Source: Coriobacteriales bacterium
GTDB lineage: Bacteria > Actinomycetota > Coriobacteriia > Coriobacteriales > UBA8131
Assembly: GCA_031263105.1 (NCBI GenBank)
Contig: JAISGJ010000236.1
Location: forward strand, 1-35,883
Length of the DNA: 35,883 bases
Direction of reading: 5' to 3'
Part shown: positions 187-35,883 of the stretch, piece by piece
How the letters are laid out: every line of letters begins with the position of its first letter
How positions within the stretch are numbered: position 1 is the first letter of the stretch
Translations under genes and position numbers: made by a program
Notes under the pieces: generated by a model
Told to the model about the DNA's origin: nothing
Seen by the model: the letters and a program-made list of their open reading frames with translations, nothing else
Database searches by the model: none

Positions 187-837
187 CTACTTCTTCATCA
201 CGTAGTCGAACGGGAACGTCAGCCAGACGACCTTCCCGATGATGCGGATGCCCTCGGTCTCGGGCCTCCCGAAGTCGTAGGTCTTCGGCTGGAAGGTCGG
301 GTCGGTCGAGTCGGGGACGAGCTCCAGGCCGTTGTTCAGGCGCCTCACGCGCTTGACGGTCGAGTCGTGGCCGTTGACGTTCACGGCGTACACCTCGTCG
401 TCGACCACCTCGGTCTTGTTCGGGTTGACGAGCGCGTAGGAGTACCTCGGCAGCACCTTGTTCATGCTCTCGCCCGAGACCTCGAGCAGGAACGAGCCGG
501 GCTCCCTCTCCATGACCTGGCGCGGAACGGGGAAGTAGTCGTCGACGGGGCACATCTCGACCGGCTCCCCTGCCGGGACCCTGCCGCGTAGCGGGACGTC
601 GATGTAGTCGGGGTCGGAATACTCAAGGATTCTAGTGCTTTCGCTTCCGAGCGACATAGGGTCAAGCCCCAACGCCCTGCATATCGGGAGAATAGTGTCG
701 ATTCCGCTTCCGCCAAGCCCGCGATTAAGGGCGTTGTTGACGGTGCTGTATGGTATCCCTGTTTGCTTGGAAAACTGAGCGACGTTGCCATACAGGTCTT
801 TGATTCTCAGTTTAACCGTTTCCTCTGTTTTGCCCAT
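187..837 (-). CDS. cI: CI-like repressor, N-terminal HTH plus S24 (LexA-type) autopeptidase
   Basis: HTH-like NVAQFSKQTGIPYSTVNNAL; VPAG cleavage motif, VSGESM catalytic Ser, TVKR catalytic Lys; ATG at 837 has a GGGAG RBS (track start 849 is TTG); divergent from cro. Confidence 0.92.
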   Translation of the reverse strand: MGKTEETVKLRIKDLYGNVAQFSKQTGIPYSTVNNALNRGLGGSGIDTILPICRALGLDPMSLGSESTRILEYSDPDYIDVPLRGRVPAGEPVEMCPVDDYFPVPRQVMEREPGSFLLEVSGESMNKVLPRYSYALVNPNKTEVVDDEVYAVNVNGHDSTVKRVRRLNNGLELVPDSTDPTFQPKTYDFGRPETEGIRIIGKVVWLTFPFDYVMKK

Positions 838-844
838 AGTTTCT

Positions 845-956
845 CCCAATTGGATGTATCACAAGAAATATTTTCCCAGTAGTACGAAAATTTATCAAGA
901 ACCTATTGCAAGTTTACCCAAATAGGTTATTATTGCTACGTAGTAACCCAATTGGG
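845..956. promoter_or_regulatory. Genetic switch: three putative operators and the rightward promoter
   Basis: AT-rich spacer. Palindrome CCCAATTGGG at 947-956, variants CCCAATTGGA at 845-854 and CCCAAATAGG at 917-926. TTGCAA (906-911)-N16-TATTAT (928-933) points at cro. Confidence 0.65.
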
Positions 957-984
957 AAAACCATAGCAACGGGAAAGGCGAAGC

Positions 985-1410
985 ATGGCGACCTACGGGA
1001 ACCTGAAGGCAGAGATGGCACGAAACGGGATCACCCAGAAACGGCTGGCCGAGTTCCTTGGCATGACACCTCAGAACGTCAAGATGAAGTTCGCAGGTCA
1101 GGTTAAGTTCTCGCTGGATGAGTGCAAGTCGATACGACGCGAGATCTTCCCGGGTCTCTCCCTCGACTACCTCTTCGCCGACAACGACATGGCCGAGGTG
1201 CGCATCGGCGCCCGCCCGCTCACCTATGACGAGTTCGTGAGCGGAGCGCCCGGGCCCGGGCTCGGCGACGACATCTACCTCCTGCCGCGCGACGCCGAGC
1301 GCAGGACGAGGCTGCGCCCCGACGGCGGCGGCGAGCTGTACATGGAGCCCCCCGGCCTGTGCTTGAGGGCGGGCGACGCAGACACGGCGGAGGGAGGCGG
1401 CGCGGCATGA
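985..1410 (+). CDS. cro: Cro-like XRE HTH regulator with C-terminal extension
   Basis: NLKAEMARNGITQKRLAEFLGMT...FSLDECKSI...LSLDYLF; divergent from cI. Confidence 0.85.
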   Translation: MATYGNLKAEMARNGITQKRLAEFLGMTPQNVKMKFAGQVKFSLDECKSIRREIFPGLSLDYLFADNDMAEVRIGARPLTYDEFVSGAPGPGLGDDIYLLPRDAERRTRLRPDGGGELYMEPPGLCLRAGDADTAEGGGAA

Positions 1411-1601
1411 GATACAGGGATTCGAGCCTCGGCCTCAGCCAGAGGCTCGTGTTCGAGGACGGCACCGTGTTCGAGCGGCGCCCCATGCGCGGCCGGCACG
1501 ACAGCACCTGGCGCGAGCAGCACAAGGTGGACGGCAGGGTCGTCGGCCGCGACGCCTGGTGGCAGCGGCTCGAGGCGAAGAAGGGGGGCGAGACGTCATG
1601 A
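1407..1601 (+). CDS. Hypothetical protein
   Basis: ATGA overlap with the cro stop, GGGAGG RBS, and ATGA overlap with the next gene. Confidence 0.6.
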   Translation: MRYRDSSLGLSQRLVFEDGTVFERRPMRGRHDSTWREQHKVDGRVVGRDAWWQRLEAKKGGETS

Positions 1602-1813
1602 GCGCCCCGTACAGGCCCTCCGTCGTCGTCTACCTCCACCCGGACGTGCCGCTGTACCAGTCCGCGACCGAGGCGGCGGCGACGCTCGGCGTGGGGCGCG
1701 AGACGCTCAGGGAGTACATGCGCCGCGCGCGCGACCCGCTGCCCTTCATCCGTGTCGGGCGCACCCAGAAGATATGCATCCCCGTCGCCGTCGAGTGGCT
1801 GGAGAGGCACTGA
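1598..1813 (+). CDS. Excisionase-like HTH protein
   Basis: SATEAAATLGVGRETLREY...LPFIRVGRTQKI...EWL pattern; early position in a phage with a tyrosine integrase. Confidence 0.75.
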   Translation: MSAPYRPSVVVYLHPDVPLYQSATEAAATLGVGRETLREYMRRARDPLPFIRVGRTQKICIPVAVEWLERH

Positions 1814-2415
1814 TGGGCGGCCTCCCCTTCGACAACATGACCCGCCGCGACGTCGCCTTCTCGGCCGCCCTCGCCGCCGCCGTCACCCTCGCGCTGGCCC
1901 TCGTGCCGCCCGCCGTGTCGGCCTGCTCGGACGCGCGCCCCGTGTACGCCTCTGCCTCCCTTCTCCCCCCGGACGTCCCCGTCGTCCGGCTGCGGACACC
2001 CCTCCCGCAGCAGCCTCCCCATGCAGAGCCCGCGGAGCAGCCCGAGCAGGCCGTCACGGCGGGCGGTATTGCAGGCGCCGCCCCCGCCGAGGGGGCGGCG
2101 GCGCCCGCCGCCGAGCCGCCGGCGCCGACGTCCCCTGCGGACGCGGCGCCGGCGGCCACCCCTTTGAGCGACGCCGAGTGCGCCGCCCGCATCATCGACT
2201 ACGAGAGCCGGGGCGACCCCTGGGCCGAGAACGGGCGCTACAAAGGCATAGGCCAGCTGGACGAGTCCTACTACCCCCTGTACATCGGCAGGACGTGGGC
2301 CGAGGTGGCCGGGGACTACGATGCCCAGTTCGAGGCCATGAGCGCCTACGTCATGTCGCGCCACGGCTCGTGGCAGGCGGCGTGGGCGCACGTCGAGAGG
2401 GAGGGGTGGTACTGA
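1813..2415 (+). CDS. Exported protein with Pro/Ala linker and C-terminal lysozyme-like (Apf/Rpf-like transglycosylase) domain
   Basis: TRR plus hydrophobic segment plus VSAC; C-terminus IIDYESRG..NGRYKGIGQL...AYVMSRHGSWQAAWAH..GWY; TGATG coupling at both ends. Confidence 0.75.
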   Translation: MGGLPFDNMTRRDVAFSAALAAAVTLALALVPPAVSACSDARPVYASASLLPPDVPVVRLRTPLPQQPPHAEPAEQPEQAVTAGGIAGAAPAEGAAAPAAEPPAPTSPADAAPAATPLSDAECAARIIDYESRGDPWAENGRYKGIGQLDESYYPLYIGRTWAEVAGDYDAQFEAMSAYVMSRHGSWQAAWAHVEREGWY

Positions 2416-2546
2416 TGGGCCGCGATCCGCTGAGGCGAGGCACGGGCGCCGCCGCCGGGTGCGGGTGCGGGTGCGCCGTCATGGGCCTCCTGCTCGCGGC
2501 CGGGTGCCTGTGCGTGGCGCTGGCGGCGAGGGCTCTGGGGCTTTAG
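2415..2546 (+). CDS. Small Cys-rich membrane peptide
   Basis: TGATG overlap; MGRDPLRRG...GCGCGCAVMGLLLAAGCLCVALAARALGL has one hydrophobic helix. Confidence 0.5.
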   Translation: MGRDPLRRGTGAAAGCGCGCAVMGLLLAAGCLCVALAARALGL

Positions 2547-2616
2547 GAGGACGGTATCGACGGGCGCGGCGTGCGCCCTGGTACGGACATGACGGTCGGA
2601 CGAAGGAGAGAGAGAC

Positions 2617-3060
2617 ATGGACGACGGAGTGACGATCAGCCTGAGGATCGAGGGCGGCGCCGGGACGGAGCGGATGCGGAGGGTCCTCGGCGCGCTGTGC
2701 GGGGACGCGGGGGCCGCCGCCGCGCCGCCGCCGCCGGAGGCCGCCCCGGCCGAGAAGCCCAAGGCCGCGAAGGCCCGCGCCAGGAAGGGCGCCGCGCCCG
2801 AGCCTGAGCCGGAGGGGGCGAAGGGGCCCGGGGGCGCGCGGCTCCCGGGCGGCGGGCCGGTCGACGCGGGGCCGGTCGGGACGGCGGGGGCCGGGCCCGT
2901 CGGGCTCGAGCGCCTGCGCGAGGTCGCCTACGGGCTCGTCCAGGCAGGCAGGCGCGAGGAGCTCGCGGCCCTGCTGGGAGAGTTCGGCGCCGCGGCGCTG
3001 CCGGAGGTCGCCGAGGCCGACCACACGGCGCTCCTCGCGCGCCTGGAGGCGCTGAGGTGA
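2617..3060 (+). CDS. Conserved phage protein typically preceding DUF2800
   Basis: AGGAGAG RBS; Pro/Ala linker and helical C-terminus LAALLGEFGAAALPEV; GTGA overlap with the next gene. Confidence 0.7.
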   Translation: MDDGVTISLRIEGGAGTERMRRVLGALCGDAGAAAAPPPPEAAPAEKPKAAKARARKGAAPEPEPEGAKGPGGARLPGGGPVDAGPVGTAGAGPVGLERLREVAYGLVQAGRREELAALLGEFGAAALPEVAEADHTALLARLEALR

Positions 3061-4226
3061 GCGGCGCGCACGCGCTCCTGAGCGCGTCCGCGTCGCACAG
3101 GTGGCTCGCGTGCACCCCCTCGGCGCGGCTCGAGGCCGGCATGCCCGAGGGCGCCAGCGTGTACGCGGAGGAGGGCACCGCCGCGCACGAGTACGCCGAG
3201 CTGGAGCTGTCCCACAGGCTCGGCAAGGTGACCAGGGCCGCCTACAGCAGGCGCCTGAAGGCCGTGAAGGCGGGCGCGCACTGGTCTGCGGAGATGGAGC
3301 GCCACATAGGCGACTACGTCGCCCAGGTGCTCGAGCTCGTGGCGGCGCTCGGGGCCTCGGGGCTGAAGCCCTACGTCGACCTGGAGCGGAGGGTCGACTT
3401 CAGCCGCTTCGTCCCCGAAGGCTACGGGACCGCTGACGTGGTCGTCTTGGCCGGGGGCGTCCTGCACGTCATAGACCTCAAGTACGGGAAGGGCGTGCCC
3501 GTCGCCGCCGAGGGCAACCCCCAGCTCATGCTGTACGCGGTCGGCGCAGTAGAGGGCTACGGCATCCTGTTCGACTTCGCCGACGTCGAGATGACCATCA
3601 TGCAGCCCCGCCTGGGCGCGACGAGCGGCTTCTCCCTGTCGCGCGAGGAGCTCCTGGCGTGGGCGAGCGACTACGTGGCCCCGAGGGCCGGGCTCGCGGC
3701 GGCGGGCGAGGGCGAGTACGCGCCGTCCGACGGCGCGTGCCGCTTCTGCAGGGCCAGGCCCGTCTGCCGCGCCCGGGCGGACGCCGCCCTCGCCGCCGCG
3801 CGCGAGGACTTCGCCCTGCCGCCGGCGCTCTCCGTCGAGGAGGTCGCCGGGCTCCTGCCCAGGCTGCCGGGCGTCGAGGCGTGGGCCAAGGACGTGCAGG
3901 AGTGGGCCCTCGGGCAGGCCCGCGACAACGGGGTCGCCTTCGCCGGCTACAAGCTGGTGGAGGGCCGCTCGGTGCGGAGGATCCCCGACGCCTTCGCCGC
4001 CGAGACGGTGCTTAAAGACGCGGGCTACCCGAAGCGCGACTACCTCAAGCCCACGGAGCTCAAGGGCGTCACCGACCTGGAGAGGCTGCTCGGCAAGCCG
4101 AGGTTCGCCGAGATGCTGGGCGGCCTGGTCGTGAGGCCCCCCGGCAAGCCGGTGCTGGTGCCGGACAGCGACAGGCGCCCGGCGCTCGGCAGCGCGCAGG
4201 GCGCGGCGGAGGACTTCAAGGACTGA
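3057..4226 (+). CDS. DUF2800 family PD-(D/E)xK (Cas4-like) exonuclease
   Basis: HALLSASASHRWLAC, AEEGTAAH, GYGTAD, IDLKYGKG, NPQLMLYA, CRFC..C. Confidence 0.9.
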   Translation: MSGAHALLSASASHRWLACTPSARLEAGMPEGASVYAEEGTAAHEYAELELSHRLGKVTRAAYSRRLKAVKAGAHWSAEMERHIGDYVAQVLELVAALGASGLKPYVDLERRVDFSRFVPEGYGTADVVVLAGGVLHVIDLKYGKGVPVAAEGNPQLMLYAVGAVEGYGILFDFADVEMTIMQPRLGATSGFSLSREELLAWASDYVAPRAGLAAAGEGEYAPSDGACRFCRARPVCRARADAALAAAREDFALPPALSVEEVAGLLPRLPGVEAWAKDVQEWALGQARDNGVAFAGYKLVEGRSVRRIPDAFAAETVLKDAGYPKRDYLKPTELKGVTDLERLLGKPRFAEMLGGLVVRPPGKPVLVPDSDRRPALGSAQGAAEDFKD

Positions 4227-28993: not shown

Positions 28994-31219
28994 ATGAATA
29001 ACGTCAATGTGAGGATCGGCAACGCCCTCTTCGGATCCACAGCGACGGCGACGATGGAGGGCATCCCGGGCGACAAGGTCCGCAAGGTGGTCTGGTCGGT
29101 CAACGGGCACACGACCACACAGACAGGCACCGGCCCCTCGGCCTCGCTGGGGATGGACCCGGCGTGGGCCGGGGCGCTCACGTCGGGGCAGTACGTCGGG
29201 GCGACGTGCACGGTCACGGTCTACCAGAGCACAGAGGTCATAGGAGAGGGGAGCGCATCCTTCGGCGTCGGGATGCCAGCGAGGTCCACGGCGGGCGTGC
29301 AGGCCACGTCCTTCGGCGCGGCGGTCGCGGTCTCCATCGCCCGGAGCGCGGCGTTCCTCACCCACACCGTGACCTGGCAGGTGGGCTCCCACAAGGCGTC
29401 CTCGACGAGGGTGGCGACATCGGCCTCCTACACCGTCCCCGCGTCATGGGCGGACGCCGCGCCGTCCGCGACCTCGGCGTCAGGCACGGTCACGGTGGAC
29501 ACCTACAACGGCGCGACCAAGACAGGCTCCGTGACCGTGCCCTTCACCCTGACGGTGCCGAGCAGCTACCTGCCCACGGCGGGGGCGCTCGGAGTCGCCC
29601 GCGTCGACGGGCGGGTGCCTGCGGGCTGGGGCGTCTACGTGCAGGGCCAGTCAAGGGCCACGCTCTCGCTGCCGTCGGCGGCGGGCTCCAACGGCTCCGC
29701 CATAGCGCTCAAGACGCTTTCTGTGAACCGCCTCCTAACCGCTGACGTCCTGTTCTCGGGCGCGGGGGGCGCGTCCTACACCTTGACGACGGGGTACCTG
29801 CCTGCTGGCAACGTCGAATGCCGTGGCAAGGTCAAGGACAGCCGTGGGCGCGAGGCCTTAGCCGAGTCACGGGCGTTCACGGTCCTCCCGTGGTCGCCCC
29901 CGGAGATCACGTCCGTCTCGGCCCAACGGTGGACGACCGGCGACGCGTCGGGCACGGCCTCCGACGACGGCACGTTCATCCGGGTCCTCGTCACCGACAG
30001 GGTCTCGCCCGTCGACGGCAAGAACACGTTCTCCCGCGCCTGGCACCGGCGGCGGGTCGGCACGGAGGACTGGACGGTCGGGCCGTACACGCCCGGCACG
30101 CCCCTTTGGCTGTCCGGGGCCTCGGCCGAGTGCAGCTACGAGGTCGCGTTCACGCTCGCCGACGCCTTCGGCAGCGTCTTCACGAGCGTCCTGGTGCCCA
30201 CCGCGCACGTCGCGATGGACTTCAGGGCGGGCGGCAAGGGCATCGCCGTCGGCAAGGTGTCGGAGAAGGAGGGGCTCGAGGTCGACTGGCCGTCGTTCTT
30301 CAACGGGCCGGTGTACCTCTCCGCCCTGACGCTGGACGGCACGGACCTCTCCCTGCCCGTGTCCGTGGCCAACGGCGGCACGGACGCCCGGAACGCGGCC
30401 GATGCCCGGACGAACCTGGGCTTCCCGAAGACGGGCGCCGCCAAGCAGAAGCTGCTGTACCTGCCGCCGGGCTCCAACGCCCCCGGCCTCGCGTGGTCGG
30501 GGGACGCCGACACGAGCAACCTCTTCGTCGTCTACCGCAACGGCTCGCTGTCGTCCTCGGCCATCCCGCTGGGCCGGGGTGACGGGGGCACGGGCGCGTC
30601 CGACGCGGCCGGCGCACGGGAGAACCTGGGCGCACAGGCCGATGTCCGCAACGTGGGTGCGCTCGAGCTTAGCCAGAACGTCGGGGCCAACGCAAACTCC
30701 TACATAGACTTCCACTCGCTCGGCGGCTCGGACTACACCTCGCGCATCATCAACAGCAGCGGGAGCTGGACGCTCCAGGTCATCGCGGGCGAGGGCAGCG
30801 GCACGGGCCCCCTCTACCTCCGGGCGCTCCACACCTTCGTGCCGAGCGCGTACGCCGACACGACCTCTGCGGGGGCGAACGTGTCCGTCGGCTCCACCGG
30901 CCAGCTGTACCGCTCGACCTCCTCGCGGCGCTACAAGAAGAACATCGAGCCCCAGGAGGCCGACCTCGGCGCGGTGGACGGCCTCATGCTCTGCACATGG
31001 GAGCCCGCCCGGGACGACCTGGGCATCGACGAGGGCCGCTACGCGGGCCTGGTGGCCGAGGACGTGTCCGACGCGCTGGGCGGCCTGTACGTCACGCTCG
31101 ACTCCGAGGGCCGCCCCGACGCCATCGAGTGGGCCGCCGTGACGGGCTACCTCGTGGAGCAGGTCAAGGACCTGCGGGCGCGGGTGGCGGCGCTGGAGGG
31201 GAGGGGGGCGCAGGCATGA
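28994..31219 (+). CDS. Tail fibre / receptor-binding protein with C-terminal intramolecular chaperone (S74-like)
   Basis: Ser/Thr-rich beta domains, YVQGQSRA, VKDSRGR, GIAVGKVSE, VANGGT/GDGGTGA repeats, SSRRYKKNI..GLVAEDV plus terminal coiled coil. Confidence 0.8.
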   Translation: MNNVNVRIGNALFGSTATATMEGIPGDKVRKVVWSVNGHTTTQTGTGPSASLGMDPAWAGALTSGQYVGATCTVTVYQSTEVIGEGSASFGVGMPARSTAGVQATSFGAAVAVSIARSAAFLTHTVTWQVGSHKASSTRVATSASYTVPASWADAAPSATSASGTVTVDTYNGATKTGSVTVPFTLTVPSSYLPTAGALGVARVDGRVPAGWGVYVQGQSRATLSLPSAAGSNGSAIALKTLSVNRLLTADVLFSGAGGASYTLTTGYLPAGNVECRGKVKDSRGREALAESRAFTVLPWSPPEITSVSAQRWTTGDASGTASDDGTFIRVLVTDRVSPVDGKNTFSRAWHRRRVGTEDWTVGPYTPGTPLWLSGASAECSYEVAFTLADAFGSVFTSVLVPTAHVAMDFRAGGKGIAVGKVSEKEGLEVDWPSFFNGPVYLSALTLDGTDLSLPVSVANGGTDARNAADARTNLGFPKTGAAKQKLLYLPPGSNAPGLAWSGDADTSNLFVVYRNGSLSSSAIPLGRGDGGTGASDAAGARENLGAQADVRNVGALELSQNVGANANSYIDFHSLGGSDYTSRIINSSGSWTLQVIAGEGSGTGPLYLRALHTFVPSAYADTTSAGANVSVGSTGQLYRSTSSRRYKKNIEPQEADLGAVDGLMLCTWEPARDDLGIDEGRYAGLVAEDVSDALGGLYVTLDSEGRPDAIEWAAVTGYLVEQVKDLRARVAALEGRGAQA

Positions 31220-31584
31220 CGGAGCTCAAGGCGATCCTCGACCTCGTGGGCGACCTGGGCGCGACCTCTACCCTCGCGCTGGCGGCCGCGCTGTTCGCGG
31301 CCCGCAGGAGGCTCTTCGCGTACCTGCGCGTCGTTCTCGGCATCGAGGCCGTCGAGTGCAAGGTGCTGCGCGAGACCATACTCAACAACATCCGCCACGC
31401 CCCCCACAAGGCCGAGGCCATCAGGTCGGACTACGACGACTACAAGGCCATGAAGGGCAACACCTACCTCGACAAGGTGGTGGCGGAGTGGCACGAGTCC
31501 TACGAGCGGGGCCTCATCGCAGAGAGGCTCGGCACGTGGGACGGGCATGAGCGGCGAGGACGGGAGGGAGGTGAATCGACATGA
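31216..31584 (+). CDS. Membrane-anchored lysis-region protein
   Basis: N-terminal hydrophobic helix; YDDYKAMKGNTY motif; ATGA overlaps at both ends. Confidence 0.65.
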   Translation: MTELKAILDLVGDLGATSTLALAAALFAARRRLFAYLRVVLGIEAVECKVLRETILNNIRHAPHKAEAIRSDYDDYKAMKGNTYLDKVVAEWHESYERGLIAERLGTWDGHERRGREGGEST

Positions 31585-31817
31585 ACCTTTTAGCAATCGG
31601 GAAGCGCAAGTACCTGTACTACGTGACGGCCATATACGCCCCGAGCGTGATTCTGGCCGTGGCGCTGATGAACGTGTGGGGGGCCCCCTGCACGGAGCAG
31701 GTGACCTACACGCTGGAGGCCGTGGGGACGTTCCTGGGCGCGATATCGGGCGTGTTCGGGCTGGCGAACTACAGCCCGGCGCAGGGCGCACAGGCAGGGC
31801 CGGAAGGCACCGACTAG
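31581..31817 (+). CDS. Holin (Dp-1-like)
   Basis: Two hydrophobic segments, VWGAPCTEQV..TLEAVGTFLGAI; upstream of the endolysin. Confidence 0.75.
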   Translation: MNLLAIGKRKYLYYVTAIYAPSVILAVALMNVWGAPCTEQVTYTLEAVGTFLGAISGVFGLANYSPAQGAQAGPEGTD

Positions 31818-31833
31818 AGAGAGAGGTAGTGAC

Positions 31834-31926
31834 ATGGAAGACAAGACCGCTGACGGGGCCATGGGCCAGGAGGAGATCGAGGCCATGGGGCCGGGCGACG
31901 ACATGCCCGAGGAGGTGGCGTCATGA
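31834..31926 (+). CDS. 30-aa acidic peptide (MEDKTADGAMGQEEIEAMGPGDDMPEEVAS), not in the ORF track
   Basis: GAGAGGT RBS; stop overlaps the endolysin start (ATGA). Confidence 0.5.
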   Translation: MEDKTADGAMGQEEIEAMGPGDDMPEEVAS

Positions 31927-32888
31927 GCCTGGATATCGTGCAGATCCCCGCCGACCCCTCCAACTACACGCGGAACCGCGCCGCGCAGGGCGGGCGCGTC
32001 ACGCACGCCACCGTCCACCACGCGGCGGGCACCTCGCTGCAGGGGGTGGACAACACGTTCCGGACGCCGGGCCGCAGCGCGAGCACCCACTACGGCGTGC
32101 AGGACGGGCAGGTGCACCAGTACCTGCCCGAGACGGACGTGCCGTGGTCGGACGGGAGCTGGGCGAGCAACATCAGCACGGTCAGCATGGAGCTGGTGGA
32201 CGCGGGCGGCGCGCCGGACTGGCCGGTGTCGGAGGCCACATTCGACACGGCGGCGCAGCTCGTGGCGGACATCCTCAAGCGTCACGGCCTGGGCCCCGCC
32301 GTCAAGGGCGTGAACGTGTGCTGGCACCAGATGTACTCCGCGACGGCCTGCCCCGGGCCGTGGATGCTCCGCAACATGGACAGGTTCGTGGCATTGGTCA
32401 ACAAGTACATGGAGGTTCCCGTGACAAAAGAGAAGAAGGTGCAGATGTACGCGTACAACGGCACCGACGCCCAGATGTGGAGGCCCGTCCTCGTGGCGGA
32501 GAACGCCTACACGCTGGAGAGCAAGGCCAAGCCCGGGTACTTCCTCGGGGTCGCAGGCGGCGCACACAGGGCGGGCGTCCTCATTCAGGCCCAGCCCAGG
32601 ATGGCGAACGCCGCGAGGCAGCAGTTCAAGCTGGTGCACTATGCCGACCGTAAGTACGTCCCTGCATGGGCGGCCCCTTTGCAGATAGTGCCCTGCACCG
32701 GCAACGGGAAGGGGCTGAGGCTCGACGTCAAGGCCGCATCGAAAGACGACGGGGCGGCCCTTCAGCTGTACGCGGCCAACGCGACCGCCGCCCAGAAGTT
32801 CGTCATATACGACCACGGGGACGGCTATTGGAGCCTTGCCTGCATAGGCACAGGAACGGTCGTCGACCTCGCCGCAGGCGGGAGGTAG
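31923..32888 (+). CDS. Endolysin: zinc amidase (Amidase_2-like) plus ricin-type beta-trefoil domain
   Basis: TVHHAAG, STHYGV, SMEL, WHQMYSATACPG; VQMYAYNGTDAQMW and LQLYAANATAAQKF ricin repeats. Confidence 0.88.
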   Translation: MSLDIVQIPADPSNYTRNRAAQGGRVTHATVHHAAGTSLQGVDNTFRTPGRSASTHYGVQDGQVHQYLPETDVPWSDGSWASNISTVSMELVDAGGAPDWPVSEATFDTAAQLVADILKRHGLGPAVKGVNVCWHQMYSATACPGPWMLRNMDRFVALVNKYMEVPVTKEKKVQMYAYNGTDAQMWRPVLVAENAYTLESKAKPGYFLGVAGGAHRAGVLIQAQPRMANAARQQFKLVHYADRKYVPAWAAPLQIVPCTGNGKGLRLDVKAASKDDGAALQLYAANATAAQKFVIYDHGDGYWSLACIGTGTVVDLAAGGR

Positions 32889-32891
32889 GTC

Positions 32892-33236
32892 ATGGGCAGG
32901 ACCAAGGGCAAGGCCGTGACCGGCCCCGTCAACGGCGTCACCCTCAACGGGGCGACCGTGGCCCTCCCTGGGACGGAGCTCACCACCGGCCGTGCGCGCG
33001 TGGTGCCCTACGTCCCGTCGGACGCCCCCGAAGGGGCGAAGCCCCCGAAGGCGGGCGAGAAGGTCACGGTGATCCCGAGGGAGGCGCACGTCCGCTCCAC
33101 GCCCCGGAGGCTCGACGACCTCTCCAACGTCGTCGGCGCGGTCCGGCGCGGCGACGCGCTGGACGTCCTCGAGCGGCTGGACGGGTGGGTGCGCGTCGGC
33201 GAGGGCAGGTACGTCTTTGCCGAGTGCGTCAGGTAG
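32892..33236 (+). CDS. Stand-alone SH3b-like domain protein
   Basis: AHVRSTP...VVGAVRRGDALDVLERLDGWVRVGEGRYV. Confidence 0.65.
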   Translation: MGRTKGKAVTGPVNGVTLNGATVALPGTELTTGRARVVPYVPSDAPEGAKPPKAGEKVTVIPREAHVRSTPRRLDDLSNVVGAVRRGDALDVLERLDGWVRVGEGRYVFAECVR

Positions 33237-33251
33237 GCCGCAGCAGAGTCA

Positions 33252-33291
33252 GGCCCCCGTCCGGATCGTCCGGGCGGGGGCCGTTTTTTTT
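33252..33291 (+). terminator. Intrinsic terminator of the late operon
   Basis: GGCCCCCGTCCGGA-tcg-TCCGGGCGGGGGCC plus 8 T. Confidence 0.9.
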
Positions 33292-33317
33292 GTGCCCGGA
33301 GCCGGCCCCCGCCGCCG

Positions 33318-33530
33318 TGTGCCATCCTGTGCCATCGGGTGTCAAGATGTGCCGTGATGTGCCGTTGTCGTGGTAAGTCGCGGGGTGACGCGGGGCGTAA
33401 GATTGTGGCGCCTGCCTCGCAAAACGGGGTTTTCCCACAAAGCCGGGTGGCGGAGGGACAGGGATTCGAAGGCCGGGGCATAGTGCATCTGCCTGCACAA
33501 ACGCGTTTTGGGTGTGCCGTCAGGTGCCGT
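33318..33530. other. attP with tRNA-Ser 3' core and phased arm-type repeats
   Basis: Minus strand 33470-33448 reads TTCGAATCCCTGTCCCTCCGCCA; TGTGCC-like repeats every 10 bp at 33318-33365 and 33513-33530; adjacent to the integrase 3' end. Confidence 0.85.
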
Positions 33531-34614
33531 TCGCTGCCCTCGCGTAGGCCCGGTCGATCGCCTTCGCGTCCTCCTTGAGGTCCGTCAGCAGGGGGCGGAC
33601 GTAGCGGTTCAGCGTGGTGGTCACGTCGGTGTGCCCGAGCCACTTGGAGACGGACGCGACGTCGATGCCCGCCCGGATCGCGGCGGTCGCGAAGGAGTGC
33701 CGCAGCGTGCTCATGTTTATCCTCGGGACGTCGTGCGCCTCCCTGAAGCGCTCGATGAGGGTGGTGGCGCGGCGCGGCTTCACCGGGCGGCCGCCGTGGT
33801 CGGCCACGGGGCCGGCGATGCGGGTGACGCCGCCGCAGTCGCGCAGCGCGACCATCTGCCCGAAGGCGAAGTCGGTCATGGGGACCGTGCGCCGCGACTG
33901 CCTCGTCTTCGGCGGCGTCATGTCCGGCTCGCCGACCGTGTACGTGTAGGTCTGCCTCACATGTATCTCGCGCCTGCCGAAGTCGACGTGCCCCCACTCG
34001 AGCCCCAGTATCTCGCCCTTGCGCAGCCCGAAGCACAGGCCCAGGACGAGCAGCGCCCGCGTCTCGGCGTCCCCGGCGAGCCCGATCACCCTCCTGTGCT
34101 CGCCGAACGACGTGAGCCACTCGCCCCTGCGGTCGCGCGTGCTCTCCTTCGGCGGCATCCTGTAGCGGCCGGCCGCGGGGTTGTGGGCGAGCACCTCGTT
34201 GTCGACGGCGTGGGACAGGACGCAGCGCAGCGTGTCCCGGGCGTTCTCGGCGATGCTCGCCGTGTCGCACGCCGACAGCATCCTCTGTATCTCCGAGTGC
34301 GTGACGTCCCCTATCAGGCGCCCGCCGAGCCAGGGGCGTATCCTCAGCTCTATGTCGCGCCTGTACCCGGCGAGGGTGTTCTTGCGCAGTATCTCCTCCT
34401 TGTCCGGGAGGAAGTGGCCGTCGATGTACGCGGAGAGCGTGATGCGGTTCGAGCGCCCCCGCAGGTCGCGCTTGAGCATCTGCAGGTCGATCTCGGCCCT
34501 CCTGGCCTCCTTCGCCGTCCTGCACGAGGCCGTCTTGCGGTCGCGGCTGCCGTCGGGCCTGGTGCCGATGTCCACCTGGACGCGGTAGCCGGTCTTGGTC
34601 CTGTAGATGCTCAT
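33520..34614 (-). CDS. int: Tyrosine integrase
   Basis: N-terminal arm-binding-like segment; GLRKGEILGL, PKT, TLRHSFAT, LGHTDVTTTLNRY. Confidence 0.95.
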   Translation of the reverse strand: MSIYRTKTGYRVQVDIGTRPDGSRDRKTASCRTAKEARRAEIDLQMLKRDLRGRSNRITLSAYIDGHFLPDKEEILRKNTLAGYRRDIELRIRPWLGGRLIGDVTHSEIQRMLSACDTASIAENARDTLRCVLSHAVDNEVLAHNPAAGRYRMPPKESTRDRRGEWLTSFGEHRRVIGLAGDAETRALLVLGLCFGLRKGEILGLEWGHVDFGRREIHVRQTYTYTVGEPDMTPPKTRQSRRTVPMTDFAFGQMVALRDCGGVTRIAGPVADHGGRPVKPRRATTLIERFREAHDVPRINMSTLRHSFATAAIRAGIDVASVSKWLGHTDVTTTLNRYVRPLLTDLKEDAKAIDRAYARAANGT

Positions 34615-34648
34615 CGTGCGCCTCCTGTGGCCGTTCTCTGCGCCTGCT

Positions 34649-34678
34649 TTGACACGCCCCCTGCGTCCGTGCTACAAT
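34649..34678 (+). promoter_or_regulatory. Near-consensus sigma70 promoter, antisense to the PemK-like gene
   Basis: TTGACA (34649-34654)-N18-TACAAT (34673-34678) with TG extension; no plausible plus-strand CDS downstream. Confidence 0.75.
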
Positions 34679-34683
34679 CTCCG

Positions 34684-34725
34684 TACAAATTCCTTCGGGA
34701 TCGCCCCCGCGAGAGCGTGGGGCTA
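34684..34725 (+). ncRNA. Candidate structured sRNA at the 3' end of the PemK-like gene (3' limit unknown)
   Basis: TCC-TTCG-GGA (cUUCGg tetraloop) and GCCCCCGC-GAGA-GCGtGGGGC (GNRA tetraloop) immediately after the promoter. Confidence 0.55.
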
Positions 34726-35124
34726 ACAGGACTGGCCGAGCAGCAGCTCGGCCAGCTTCCTTTTCAGGGCGTCGAACTCCTCCTGGCCGACCATCCCCGT
34801 CTTGTTCGCCAGCCTCGCGCTGTCCCAGACCCCGGCCTGGCTCAGGAGGGCGACGCTCGGCCTTCCCTTGACCGTGACCTCGTGGTAGTGCCTCCCGCGA
34901 TTCCTGGTGGTCGAGAGCGGGACGCCCCAGAACAGCCAGTCGTTGAACTTCTTGACGACCAGCACCGGGCGGCGGAACATGGGCCCCTTCCCGTCCTCCT
35001 CGAACCCGACGTTCTCGCCGATGCTCGTCCAGAAGACGTCGCGCTCCTTGAACGACGCGTGGCGGCCCGCGTTGTTCACCCCCGCCTTGACGGGCATCCA
35101 CCTGCTGTAGTCCTTCTCGCCCAT
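34723..35124 (-). CDS. PemK/MazF-like endoribonuclease toxin without an adjacent protein antitoxin
   Basis: DVFWTSIGENVGFEEDGKG..RRPVLVVKKF..FWGVPLST..ALLSQ...DSARL; ATG at 35124 with GAGGGAG RBS. Confidence 0.85.
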   Translation of the reverse strand: MGEKDYSRWMPVKAGVNNAGRHASFKERDVFWTSIGENVGFEEDGKGPMFRRPVLVVKKFNDWLFWGVPLSTTRNRGRHYHEVTVKGRPSVALLSQAGVWDSARLANKTGMVGQEEFDALKRKLAELLLGQSC

Positions 35125-35195
35125 GCTCCCTCTCTTCTCCTCTCCGCCTTCCGGCCCCTCCGGCCCCCTCCCCCTCGCCCGCTGCGGCCCAGAGG

Positions 35196-35776
35196 CTACT
35201 GCCCGACACTCCACGCGACGTAGTCCTGCTCGCTCGAGAAGATGCTGTTCCCGTAGAGCAGCTTCGCTATCCCGTCCTCCTCGAGGAAGTACAGGTGCTT
35301 CGTGAAGGACCCGCCGGGCGCGAGGTTCCCCGACGACATCTCGTCGGTCGCCCCCTCGACCATGAAGGCGGTGCTGTCCCGCACGCCGCTCACGGTCTGC
35401 GCCTGCCAGTCGAACGGGTTGAACGAGTGCTCGCGGTCGGAGCCGTTCGTGTAGGACACCGTCACCTGTATCGCGGGCTTGTCCTCGTAGTCGTACCAGC
35501 CCGCCTCCACCGCGTCGACCGAGACGGTCAGCCCGTCCTGCACCTCGTAGGCCGTGCCGACGGGGAGGTTCTGCGGGTCGGGGCCGGGCTCCGGCTCGGG
35601 CTCCTCCGCGTCGGGAGCCGCCGCCCCCGTGGCCCCGCCCGGCTCCTCCGCCACGGGCCTGTCGGCGGGAGGCGCGTCCTCGCCGCCGCCGCTGCTCGCC
35701 GCCGCTATGCCGATGCCGATGACGGCCACGACGAGGATCCAGAGCCAGGGACGCTTATAGACCGGCTTCTTCACCC
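35196..35776 (-). CDS. Membrane-anchored DUF4352-like (Ig-like) protein, 5' end broken at the contig edge
   Basis: KKPVYKRPWLW plus transmembrane helix, Pro/Glu linker, VTVSYTNGSD..FNPFDW, SGNLAPGG. Confidence 0.75.
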
Positions 35777-35883
35777 GGGGGGGGGGGGGGGGGGGGGGGG
35801 CCGGGGTGGGGGAAAGGCACGGTGCGCGCAGGTGGACCATTGGGGTTCACATAGTTTTCTTTGGCGCCCACTTGGCGGGACAA
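35777..35883. other. Poly-G run and low-quality tail, probable artefact
   Basis: 24 G followed by sequence unlike the rest of the genome at the contig end. Confidence 0.75.

Follow-up and report, generated by a model that had tools for sequence, protein, structure and literature searches.

MazF and PemK are the textbook toxins of type II toxin-antitoxin (TA) systems, in which they are paired with protein antitoxins. RNA antitoxins that act on a protein are, to our knowledge, known only for the ToxN-like families, where they always form repeat arrays. Here we describe a MazF/PemK-like toxin gene and a convergent candidate small RNA (sRNA) gene near the right end of a 35,883-nucleotide stretch of DNA from a Coriobacteriales bacterium (GenBank assembly GCA_031263105.1, contig JAISGJ010000236.1). 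The analysed stretch, referred to as the window, is the entire 35.9-kb contig and has a GC content of ~70%. Comparison with homologous loci strongly supports a single-copy RNA gene on the opposite strand, which stays closely linked to the toxin gene in different phyla and in both domains, and the RNA is probably the antitoxin of the MazF-like nuclease.

Among the described systems, the module would work most like those of type III (ToxIN, AbiQ/antiQ, CptIN, TenpIN). Type III systems likewise lack a protein antitoxin and pair a sequence-specific endoribonuclease of the Kid/MazF class with a neighbouring gene for a small structured RNA; they are often phage- or plasmid-borne and act in abortive infection. 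Their antitoxins are tandem arrays of 34-37-nt repeats located upstream in the same transcript, whereas the module RNA is a single copy that lies downstream, is convergent and has its own promoter. No ToxI-like tandem repeats were found in the module, which contains only a 9-nt repeat occurring twice. The module RNA further consists of two simple tetraloop hairpins with no predicted pseudoknot, unlike type III RNAs, and its toxin belongs to the MazF/PemK family PF02452 rather than to the ToxN/AbiQ, CptN or TenpN families. The ToxIN RNA contains the toxin's own cleavage motif and remains bound as an inhibitor (PMC7781912).

With the type II systems MazEF, PemIK (Kis-Kid) and EndoA-EndoAI, the module has the toxin fold and the catalytic arginine in common. 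Type II systems carry a MazE/PemI-type gene upstream, however, while neither the window nor any of 85 homologous loci has one; a conserved RNA gene stands in the expected place of the protein partner, and, with the protein antitoxin missing, the module falls outside type II as defined. The family also differs from type II toxins by an extra N-terminal helix with an invariant K13 and a near-invariant W9.

The arrangement of the genes is that of convergent type I systems, for which we take TxpA/RatA and BsrG/SR4 of Bacillus subtilis and SymE/SymR of Escherichia coli as examples: a single-copy RNA gene with its own promoter runs towards the toxin gene and overlaps it at the 3' end. With few exceptions, type I toxins are small membrane peptides, and the RNAs that control them do so through long stretches of complementarity. 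The module toxin is a 133-aa soluble MazF-fold protein instead of a hydrophobic peptide of <60 aa, and the conserved part of its RNA lies outside the toxin coding sequence (CDS). Unlike in type I systems, the overlap is short or absent, spanning ~40 nt in the window (by predicted ends) and often just a shared terminator hairpin elsewhere. SymER is also listed in PMC7781912.

Another small structured RNA linked with pemK genes is the Rfam 'pemK RNA motif' (RF02913, Weinberg et al. 2017 set; 61 positions, gathering score 34.8). This family had no match in the window at the gathering score or at E<=10, and none in 20 homologous loci, in a further locus (L021, E<=10) or in the window's genome; its only match in five other module-bearing genomes scored 17.9 bits and lay elsewhere. 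No family of Rfam 15 matches the module RNA, and a full-text literature search, with subscription journals largely outside its scope, turned up neither this RNA nor any RNA partner of a PF02452 toxin. The RNA family therefore appears to be undescribed.

A first-pass annotation of the window had pointed to a toxin gene with no antitoxin-sized open reading frame (ORF) beside it, to a near-consensus antisense promoter just past its stop codon, and to UUCG and GAGA hairpins behind that promoter. All of these are present (Table 1). The toxin gene is flanked upstream by a same-strand DUF4352 gene after a 71-bp gap, and the 108-bp gap between its stop codon and the start of the downstream integrase gene holds the plus-strand promoter and hairpins. 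The promoter agrees with the consensus at 11 of 12 positions and is the sole promoter-like site in positions 30000-35883 (5.9 kb), a stretch for which dinucleotide shuffles predict 0.3 +/- 0.6 such sites. It is also kept in a paralogue in the same genome (L002) and in a further homologous locus (L003). From there, the sRNA is predicted to start at A34685, 7 nt past the -10 element.

Hairpin 2 closes with a base complementary to the first letter of the toxin's stop codon, and hairpin 3 runs antisense to the final ~14 toxin codons; together with its tail, hairpin 3 is likely the sRNA terminator. The 85-nt plus-strand RNA of positions 34684-34768 folds into precisely the three hairpins, with a free energy of -44 kcal/mol (z -4.8; 0 of 200 shuffles equally good). 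With z -4.3, the fold of the opposite strand is almost as good, so that energy alone cannot choose the strand; the comparative data do. The match of the conserved RNA core in the window is the best in the whole 2.9-Mb genome (E 1.0e-5). As estimated from sequence, the RNA is ~80 nt long in the window and 45-85 nt elsewhere.

Table 1. Positions of the toxin-RNA module and of its flanking genes in the window.
Feature	Position	Strand	Description
sRNA promoter	34649-34678	+	TTGACA-N18-TGcTACAAT
Promoter elements	-35 TTGACA 34649-34654; TG 34670-34671; -10 TACAAT 34673-34678	+	Extended -10
5' leader	34684-34690	+	UACAAAU, conserved, single-stranded
Hairpin 1	34691-34700	+	UCC-UUCG-GGA
Hairpin 2	34703-34723	+	8 pairs, one bulged U, GAGA loop
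Hairpin 3	34728-34765	+	Core stem 34732-34755, then CTTCCTTTTC tail; terminator-like
Conserved RNA core (covariance-model match)	34682-34729	+	36.8 bits, E 1.1e-06 over 315 kb
MazF/PemK-like toxin gene	34723-35124	-	133 aa; Pfam PF02452 PemK_toxin
Tyrosine integrase gene	33520-34614	-	Context, outside the conserved module; Pfam PF00589, E 1e-18
DUF4352 membrane protein gene	35196-35840	-	Context; Pfam PF11611, E 7.3e-05, under cut-off

Homologues were collected with a degenerate-pattern scan of 185,579 species genomes, in which at least 600 stretches matched; among the matches listed, 442 encode relatives of the toxin. The best 80 of these 442, plus other collected loci, were analysed. The best 80 come from candidate phyla radiation (CPR)/Patescibacteria, DPANN archaea, Campylobacterota, Verrucomicrobiota, Deinococcus, Clostridia, Coriobacteriales and a few other lineages. 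Within the window's own family, the toxin is present in 5 of 34 genomes. The protein subfamily comprises 475 clusters (50% identity) at E<=1e-30 and 1,984 at E<=1e-10.

Because a MAFFT alignment (A2) misaligned hairpin 2 across length classes, the covariance model R1 (45 positions, 10 pairs) was seeded from seven copies of equal length. It was searched against the window and 92 loci, 315 kb in all. Duplicates (L001, identical to the window; L024, to L003; L034, to L004; L008 and L011, to L006) were left out, as were loci whose toxin match is partial or too weak (L006, L009, L028, L094-L097). In the remaining set of 85 non-duplicate loci, the toxins are 37-57% identical to that of the window. 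R1 matched at E<=1 on the strand opposite the toxin in 73 of these loci, with matches ending between -44 and +50 nt from the toxin stop, mostly at +1 to +15. Model R2, built from 80 hits and run without filters, gave weak matches at the expected place in 6 of the 12 loci that R1 missed, and five others (L005, L012, L072, L076, L093) have variant leader or loop forms by eye; the last is L013, from a Campylobacter phage. A regular-expression screen (ACAA and a hairpin with a 4-nt loop) found 74 of 88 loci; it made false calls and missed others, including L001 and L002, and was superseded by the covariance models.

Past the toxin stop, the antisense strand shows a recurring order of promoter, UACAAAU, hairpin 1, a spacer of 2-4 nt, hairpin 2 and an A-rich stretch. 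Hairpin 1 is commonly GGC-UUCG-GCC or UCC-UUCG-GGA, while hairpin 2 has a variable stem, often with a GNRA or UUCG loop; a third hairpin overlapping the stop codon is frequent across the homologous loci. Over 75 copies, the leader bases are conserved at U 80, A 100, C 91, A 97, A 96, A 86 and U 73%.

In the model-fitted alignment, 97.9% of the cells are paired, compared with 65.4% in shuffles, and 216 cells have changed on both sides, compared with 61.5. Compensatory change is seen in 9 of 10 pairs, and the covariation score of 0.701 (0.184 in shuffles) was reached by 0 of 500 shuffles, with slid controls at <=0.118. A fitted alignment leans to its model, and RNAalifold was therefore also run on a plain, unfitted MAFFT alignment of 26 copies; it predicted both hairpins again, and 8 of the 9 pairs in this prediction show compensatory change. 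Family-wide, two of the three pairs of hairpin 1 covary (GC 36 / UA 34; GC 40 / CG 33), and compensatory changes occur in all seven modelled pairs of hairpin 2. The hairpin 1 loop is UUCG in 62/75 copies; that of hairpin 2 is GNRA in 20/75 and UNCG in 5/75. The paired columns hold 20 G-U cells and 2 A-C cells, and this excess, together with the UUCG and GNRA loops, settles the strand of the RNA. In several Campylobacterota loci, including L022, L035 and L049, we noticed by eye a downstream CCCCU, with a U-run behind it, to which the 3' half of hairpin 2 (AGGGG) could switch its pairing; the result would be an alternative, terminator-like fold.

Predicted promoters accompany the RNA in most copies of the family. 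A sigma-70-type promoter (TTGnnn-N16-18-TAnnnT) lies within 50 nt upstream of 64 of the 67 bacterial copies, and a -10-like TAnnnT ends 5-10 nt ahead of ACAAA in all 67. In place of the sigma-70 promoter, all seven DPANN copies (L019, L025, L027, L037, L038, L050, L061) have a B recognition element (BRE)/TATA element, (A/C)TTATTTAAA, ~22-27 nt upstream. Their RNA is almost unchanged (UUACAAAUUCCUUCGGGA...), and T-rich stretches replace the hairpin terminators. Both geometries are predicted to put the start in or beside ACAAA. This change of promoter type with the host, ahead of an RNA that is retained, strongly supports a gene transcribed on its own, and the archaeal copies suggest inter-domain transfer with a change of promoter. 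On the RNA strand, 47 of 73 copies are followed by a hairpin with a T-tail, from which the median RNA length is estimated at 74 nt; by the criteria used, such a hairpin and tail are mostly absent from archaeal and Campylobacterota copies. Many CPR loci have a bidirectional terminator on the toxin stop codon.

The coupling of RNA and toxin is also apparent when genomes are scanned for the RNA first. In the 2.9-Mb genome of the window, the top two matches are the two toxin loci, and the next two are partial (E 0.05 and 0.19). The 34 genomes of the window's family gave five matches at E<=0.01, four of which adjoin a toxin-family gene, in one case the frameshifted pseudogene of G019, and the fifth of which (L104) is a leaderless double hairpin; at this threshold, none of the toxin-less genomes among the 34 had a match. 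In 81 CPR genomes, 19 matches at E<=0.001 were found in 12 genomes, and 16 of them abut a convergent toxin gene (tblastn E<=1e-8). The other three are L109, which lies by a toxin remnant, L122, an orphan RNA that is intact with its own promoter and terminator, and L124, a false match. In genome G019 (L006/L102, contig C6, about 69441-69875), the toxin is split over three frames with an internal TAG, and the RNA is intact (43.5 bits). The RNA is thus kept beside decayed toxins (G019, L109) and once alone (L122), the kind of asymmetry that an antidote should show.

Where two or three diverged toxin genes stand in tandem, each has an RNA of its own: both copies have one in L015 and in L035, while L018 has two by model and a third, a variant, by eye. 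The first L018 copy has the leader UAUAUU, not UACAAAU, which hints at paired specificities.

Several statements of the first-pass annotation are borne out by these comparisons. The tetraloops read correctly only on the promoter strand, and they do so family-wide; the single-copy RNA gene on the opposite strand is corroborated by covariance-model linkage across phyla; and promoter conservation and stem covariation in homologues, which had been proposed as checks, are both found. Its placement of the module in a prophage lysogeny operon holds for the two copies of this genome, whereas most members of the family sit in varied chromosomal contexts (CPR, DPANN, Campylobacterota).

The assignment of the protein to the MazF fold draws on profiles and on structure prediction. 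Residues 28-128 match PF02452 with 33.5 bits (cut-off 23.1, E 5.3e-08), PHROG 9567 'MazF-like growth inhibitor' matches with E 8.2e-17, and the NCBIfam MazF model matches with E 1e-4, far under its cut-off. Relatives are labelled as MazF or PemK toxins in their source databases. A profile of 45 members compared with the PDB matched B. subtilis EndoA/YdcE best (4mdx, E 7.9e-08), followed by B. anthracis PemK/MoxT and Staphylococcus aureus MazF. In the alignment to 4mdx, the invariant R52-P53 lies opposite the R-P of EndoA (R52 = R25), and P69-L70-S71 lies opposite A-I-T. We take the EndoA residues to be numbered R25/T48, and the EndoA Arg aligned with R52 to be catalytic. The AF2 model (predicted local distance difference test, pLDDT, 85.5) shows a MazF SH3-like barrel with the extra N-terminal helix at residues 6-18, a region in which K13 is invariant and K4 and W9 are near-invariant. 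All Foldseek matches listed (to rank 49) are of the MazF family, the top ones with template modelling (TM) scores (target) of 0.70-0.78 and E down to 5e-07; M. tuberculosis MazFs are also among the closest solved structures, and no ToxN/AbiQ chains are among the matches listed.

A search for a protein antitoxin gave no candidate common to the family. None is encoded beside the toxin in the window, and MazE, PemI, AbrB and ribbon-helix-helix (RHH) domains had no Pfam match among 42 ORFs of <=135 aa. The 85 loci hold 82 same-strand upstream ORFs, which form only five clusters of two, each a pair of neighbours from similar loci; one such pair (L018/L035) is the second toxin copy. No upstream ORF family recurs in the 85 loci. 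In two Deinococcus metagenome-assembled genomes (L054, 1268-1498; L082, 1237-1464), an Xre-type helix-turn-helix (HTH) ORF of 76-77 aa overlaps the toxin start and the RNA is also present; an ORF of this kind occurs in these two loci only.

The reading we lean toward, though with modest confidence, is that the toxin gene and the convergent sRNA gene form one module and that the RNA is an antitoxin acting mainly by binding the protein, in a type III-like manner. The antitoxin RNA would be made from its own strong promoter, starting at or beside the single-stranded ACAAA(U) and ending at the toxin stop codon. Its ACAAA end would occupy the RNA-binding groove of the toxin as a pseudo-substrate or product mimic, and the two stable-tetraloop hairpins would supply affinity and stability. 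A fall in RNA synthesis or stability, e.g. upon phage attack or loss of the element, would then free the nuclease. A more specific and more doubtful proposal extends this to a hitherto unrecognised class of bacterial and archaeal TA systems, in which a MazF/PemK nuclease would be held by a single mini-RNA, transcribed separately, whose 5' ACAAA mimics the 3' cleavage product and plugs the active site, with the tetraloop hairpins clamping the RNA to the N-terminal helix and the promoter alone being swapped between domains.

The closest solved relatives favour direct binding, as their target resembles the UACAAAU leader: EndoA and S. aureus MazF cut at U^ACAU, and the D. radiodurans enzyme at U^ACA (PMC7781912). 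The position of the conserved sequence likewise argues for binding and against a type I-like antisense mechanism, in which the sRNA would base-pair to the toxin mRNA at its 3' end, or to a toxin-integrase read-through transcript, and, as in systems of the TxpA/RatA type, lead to cleavage by RNase III or to a block of expression while the protein stays unbound. The core lies mostly past the stop codon, outside the toxin CDS, and the bidirectional terminators of many CPR loci would leave transcripts that share one hairpin only. Pairing alone would also leave unexplained why leader and first loop are conserved across phyla and domains while toxin 3' ends vary. The UUCG and GNRA loops are poor initiators of pairing, and the toxin is a soluble 133-aa RNase, no small membrane peptide. 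The antisense mechanism would fit the convergent genes with their overlapping 3' ends, the window's hairpin 3 with its complementarity to the end of the toxin CDS, and the several loci that use hairpin 2 as RNA terminator, where the toxin strand has no T-tail. In the window, moreover, there is no terminator between toxin and integrase, so a read-through mRNA would be fully complementary; the two genes may be co-transcribed, and an antisense contribution is therefore possible at this locus. As the main mode of action of the family, we regard antisense as unlikely. About as improbable, if marginally less so, is that the RNA is a dedicated partner of the protein rather than its antitoxin, i.e. 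a processed or bound RNA, or a cofactor, sensor or specificity subunit of a ribonucleoprotein such as a phage-activated defence complex. The linkage and conservation data apply to such a partner as well, the conserved N-terminal helix is absent from classical MazF, and PADLOC returned no match, so that the defence system, if it is one, would be undescribed. The retained MazF fold and catalytic Arg speak for a toxin, however, and an RNA that outlasts decayed toxins, once entirely alone, suits an antidote better than a cofactor.

Control of the toxin by a protein or by itself, through an unlinked antitoxin, the Xre-type ORF of Deinococcus or the N-terminal helix in cis, would reduce the RNA to a conserved terminator/promoter region or an unrelated sRNA. 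A solitary MazF with an unlinked partner is known from Myxococcus xanthus, where MazF is paired with MrpC (PMC2701414), and the two Deinococcus loci with an upstream HTH ORF point the same way. Yet no neighbour recurs in the 85 loci, and a plain terminator needs neither a promoter of its own (a TATA box in archaea) nor an invariant leader, which makes this explanation very unlikely. Chance, finally, could place a fortuitous promoter-like word beside GC-rich hairpins in a 70% GC genome, as hairpins abound in high-GC DNA and the minus strand folds almost as well; the linkage, the covariation, the promoters and the RNA-first scans refute it, and its probability is close to nil.

Several observations weigh against the RNA as a protein-binding antitoxin. 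In the window, hairpin 2 has no U-tail, and the tail of the candidate terminator, which lies inside coding sequence, is weak (CUUCCUUUUC); the start site and ends of the sRNA are predictions. A look-up of sequencing runs for this DNA listed DNA contigs of one termite-gut study and no RNA run. The likeness of UACAAAU to UACAU is a resemblance only. Toxicity and nuclease activity are read from the fold and the aligned Arg52/Ser71 alone, and the extra N-terminal helix might have another role, e.g. self-inhibition. The pair counts come from a model-fitted alignment of related sequences that are not independent, one orphan RNA exists, and the Deinococcus Xre-type ORF may be a lineage-specific protein regulator or antitoxin. 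A 35%-identical Campylobacter prophage homologue (L013), in addition, has no core recognisable by R1 or R2.

This homologue belongs to the few relatives found in phage databases. INPHARED gave just seven matching records, all of Campylobacter CJIE4-type phages, at 35% identity; in IMG/VR, a single-protein scan was empty and an alignment scan gave only four weak partial matches, which were not used. In Campylobacter phage CJIE4-3 (L013, KF751795.1, 2468-3060), the 35%-identical 'toxin MazF' gene is flanked by those for terminase and portal. Its stop codon is overlapped by a GC-rich hairpin (CCCCGC...GCGGGG) with a T-tail on the antisense strand, and TGaTATAAT is found ~100 nt upstream.

The plus strand of the window carries phage structural and lysis genes, and three minus-strand genes make up its right end. 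The neighbours of the module vary from locus to locus, and a DUF4352 gene next to the toxin is common only to the window and to the paralogous prophage module of the same genome (L002, contig C104). There, the toxin has 57% protein identity to that of the window and the order DUF4352-toxin-integrase is kept; the promoter and UUCG hairpin of the RNA site are nearly identical, and the second hairpin has another sequence and the same shape. This second prophage-like module spans positions 706-3324 (G000:C104), in the order DUF4352, toxin, RNA and integrase, and a tRNA gene directly beyond the integrase (3242-3324) is the probable integration site. The window has no tRNA gene, and only 6 of 60 loci have one within 1.5 kb; tRNA adjacency, considered as a sign of an integrative element, is no defining feature of the module. 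In 5 of the 60 loci (L017, L066, L068, L069, L073), the two genes of the module stand immediately beside a tRNA gene, which fits occasional insertion at tRNA-proximal hotspots.

Two further features of the window were noted outside the module. A strong 14-bp GC-rich hairpin followed by GTTTTTTTTG at 33252-33282, between the lysis-module genes and the integrase, is likely the terminator of the late operon, with the attP region probably nearby. Near the contig end, a poly-G run of ~36 nt (88% matches) at 35777-35812 falls within what is predicted to be the 5' end of the DUF4352 gene and would encode poly-Pro there. The run may be a sequencing or assembly artefact, which makes the true start of the DUF4352 gene uncertain.

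If the proposed role is correct, a large MazF subfamily would be controlled by a single structured sRNA, a new architecture of RNA-based toxin control, and many 'orphan' MazF annotations in metagenome genomes would be explained. The pair would also be compact (~45 nt and 130 aa) and usable with both bacterial and archaeal transcription. The module RNA is among the few conserved non-coding RNAs recognisable in both CPR bacteria and DPANN archaea. In the Coriobacteriales bacterium itself, the module lies in the lysogeny region of a prophage, where it may aid phage exclusion or prophage retention.

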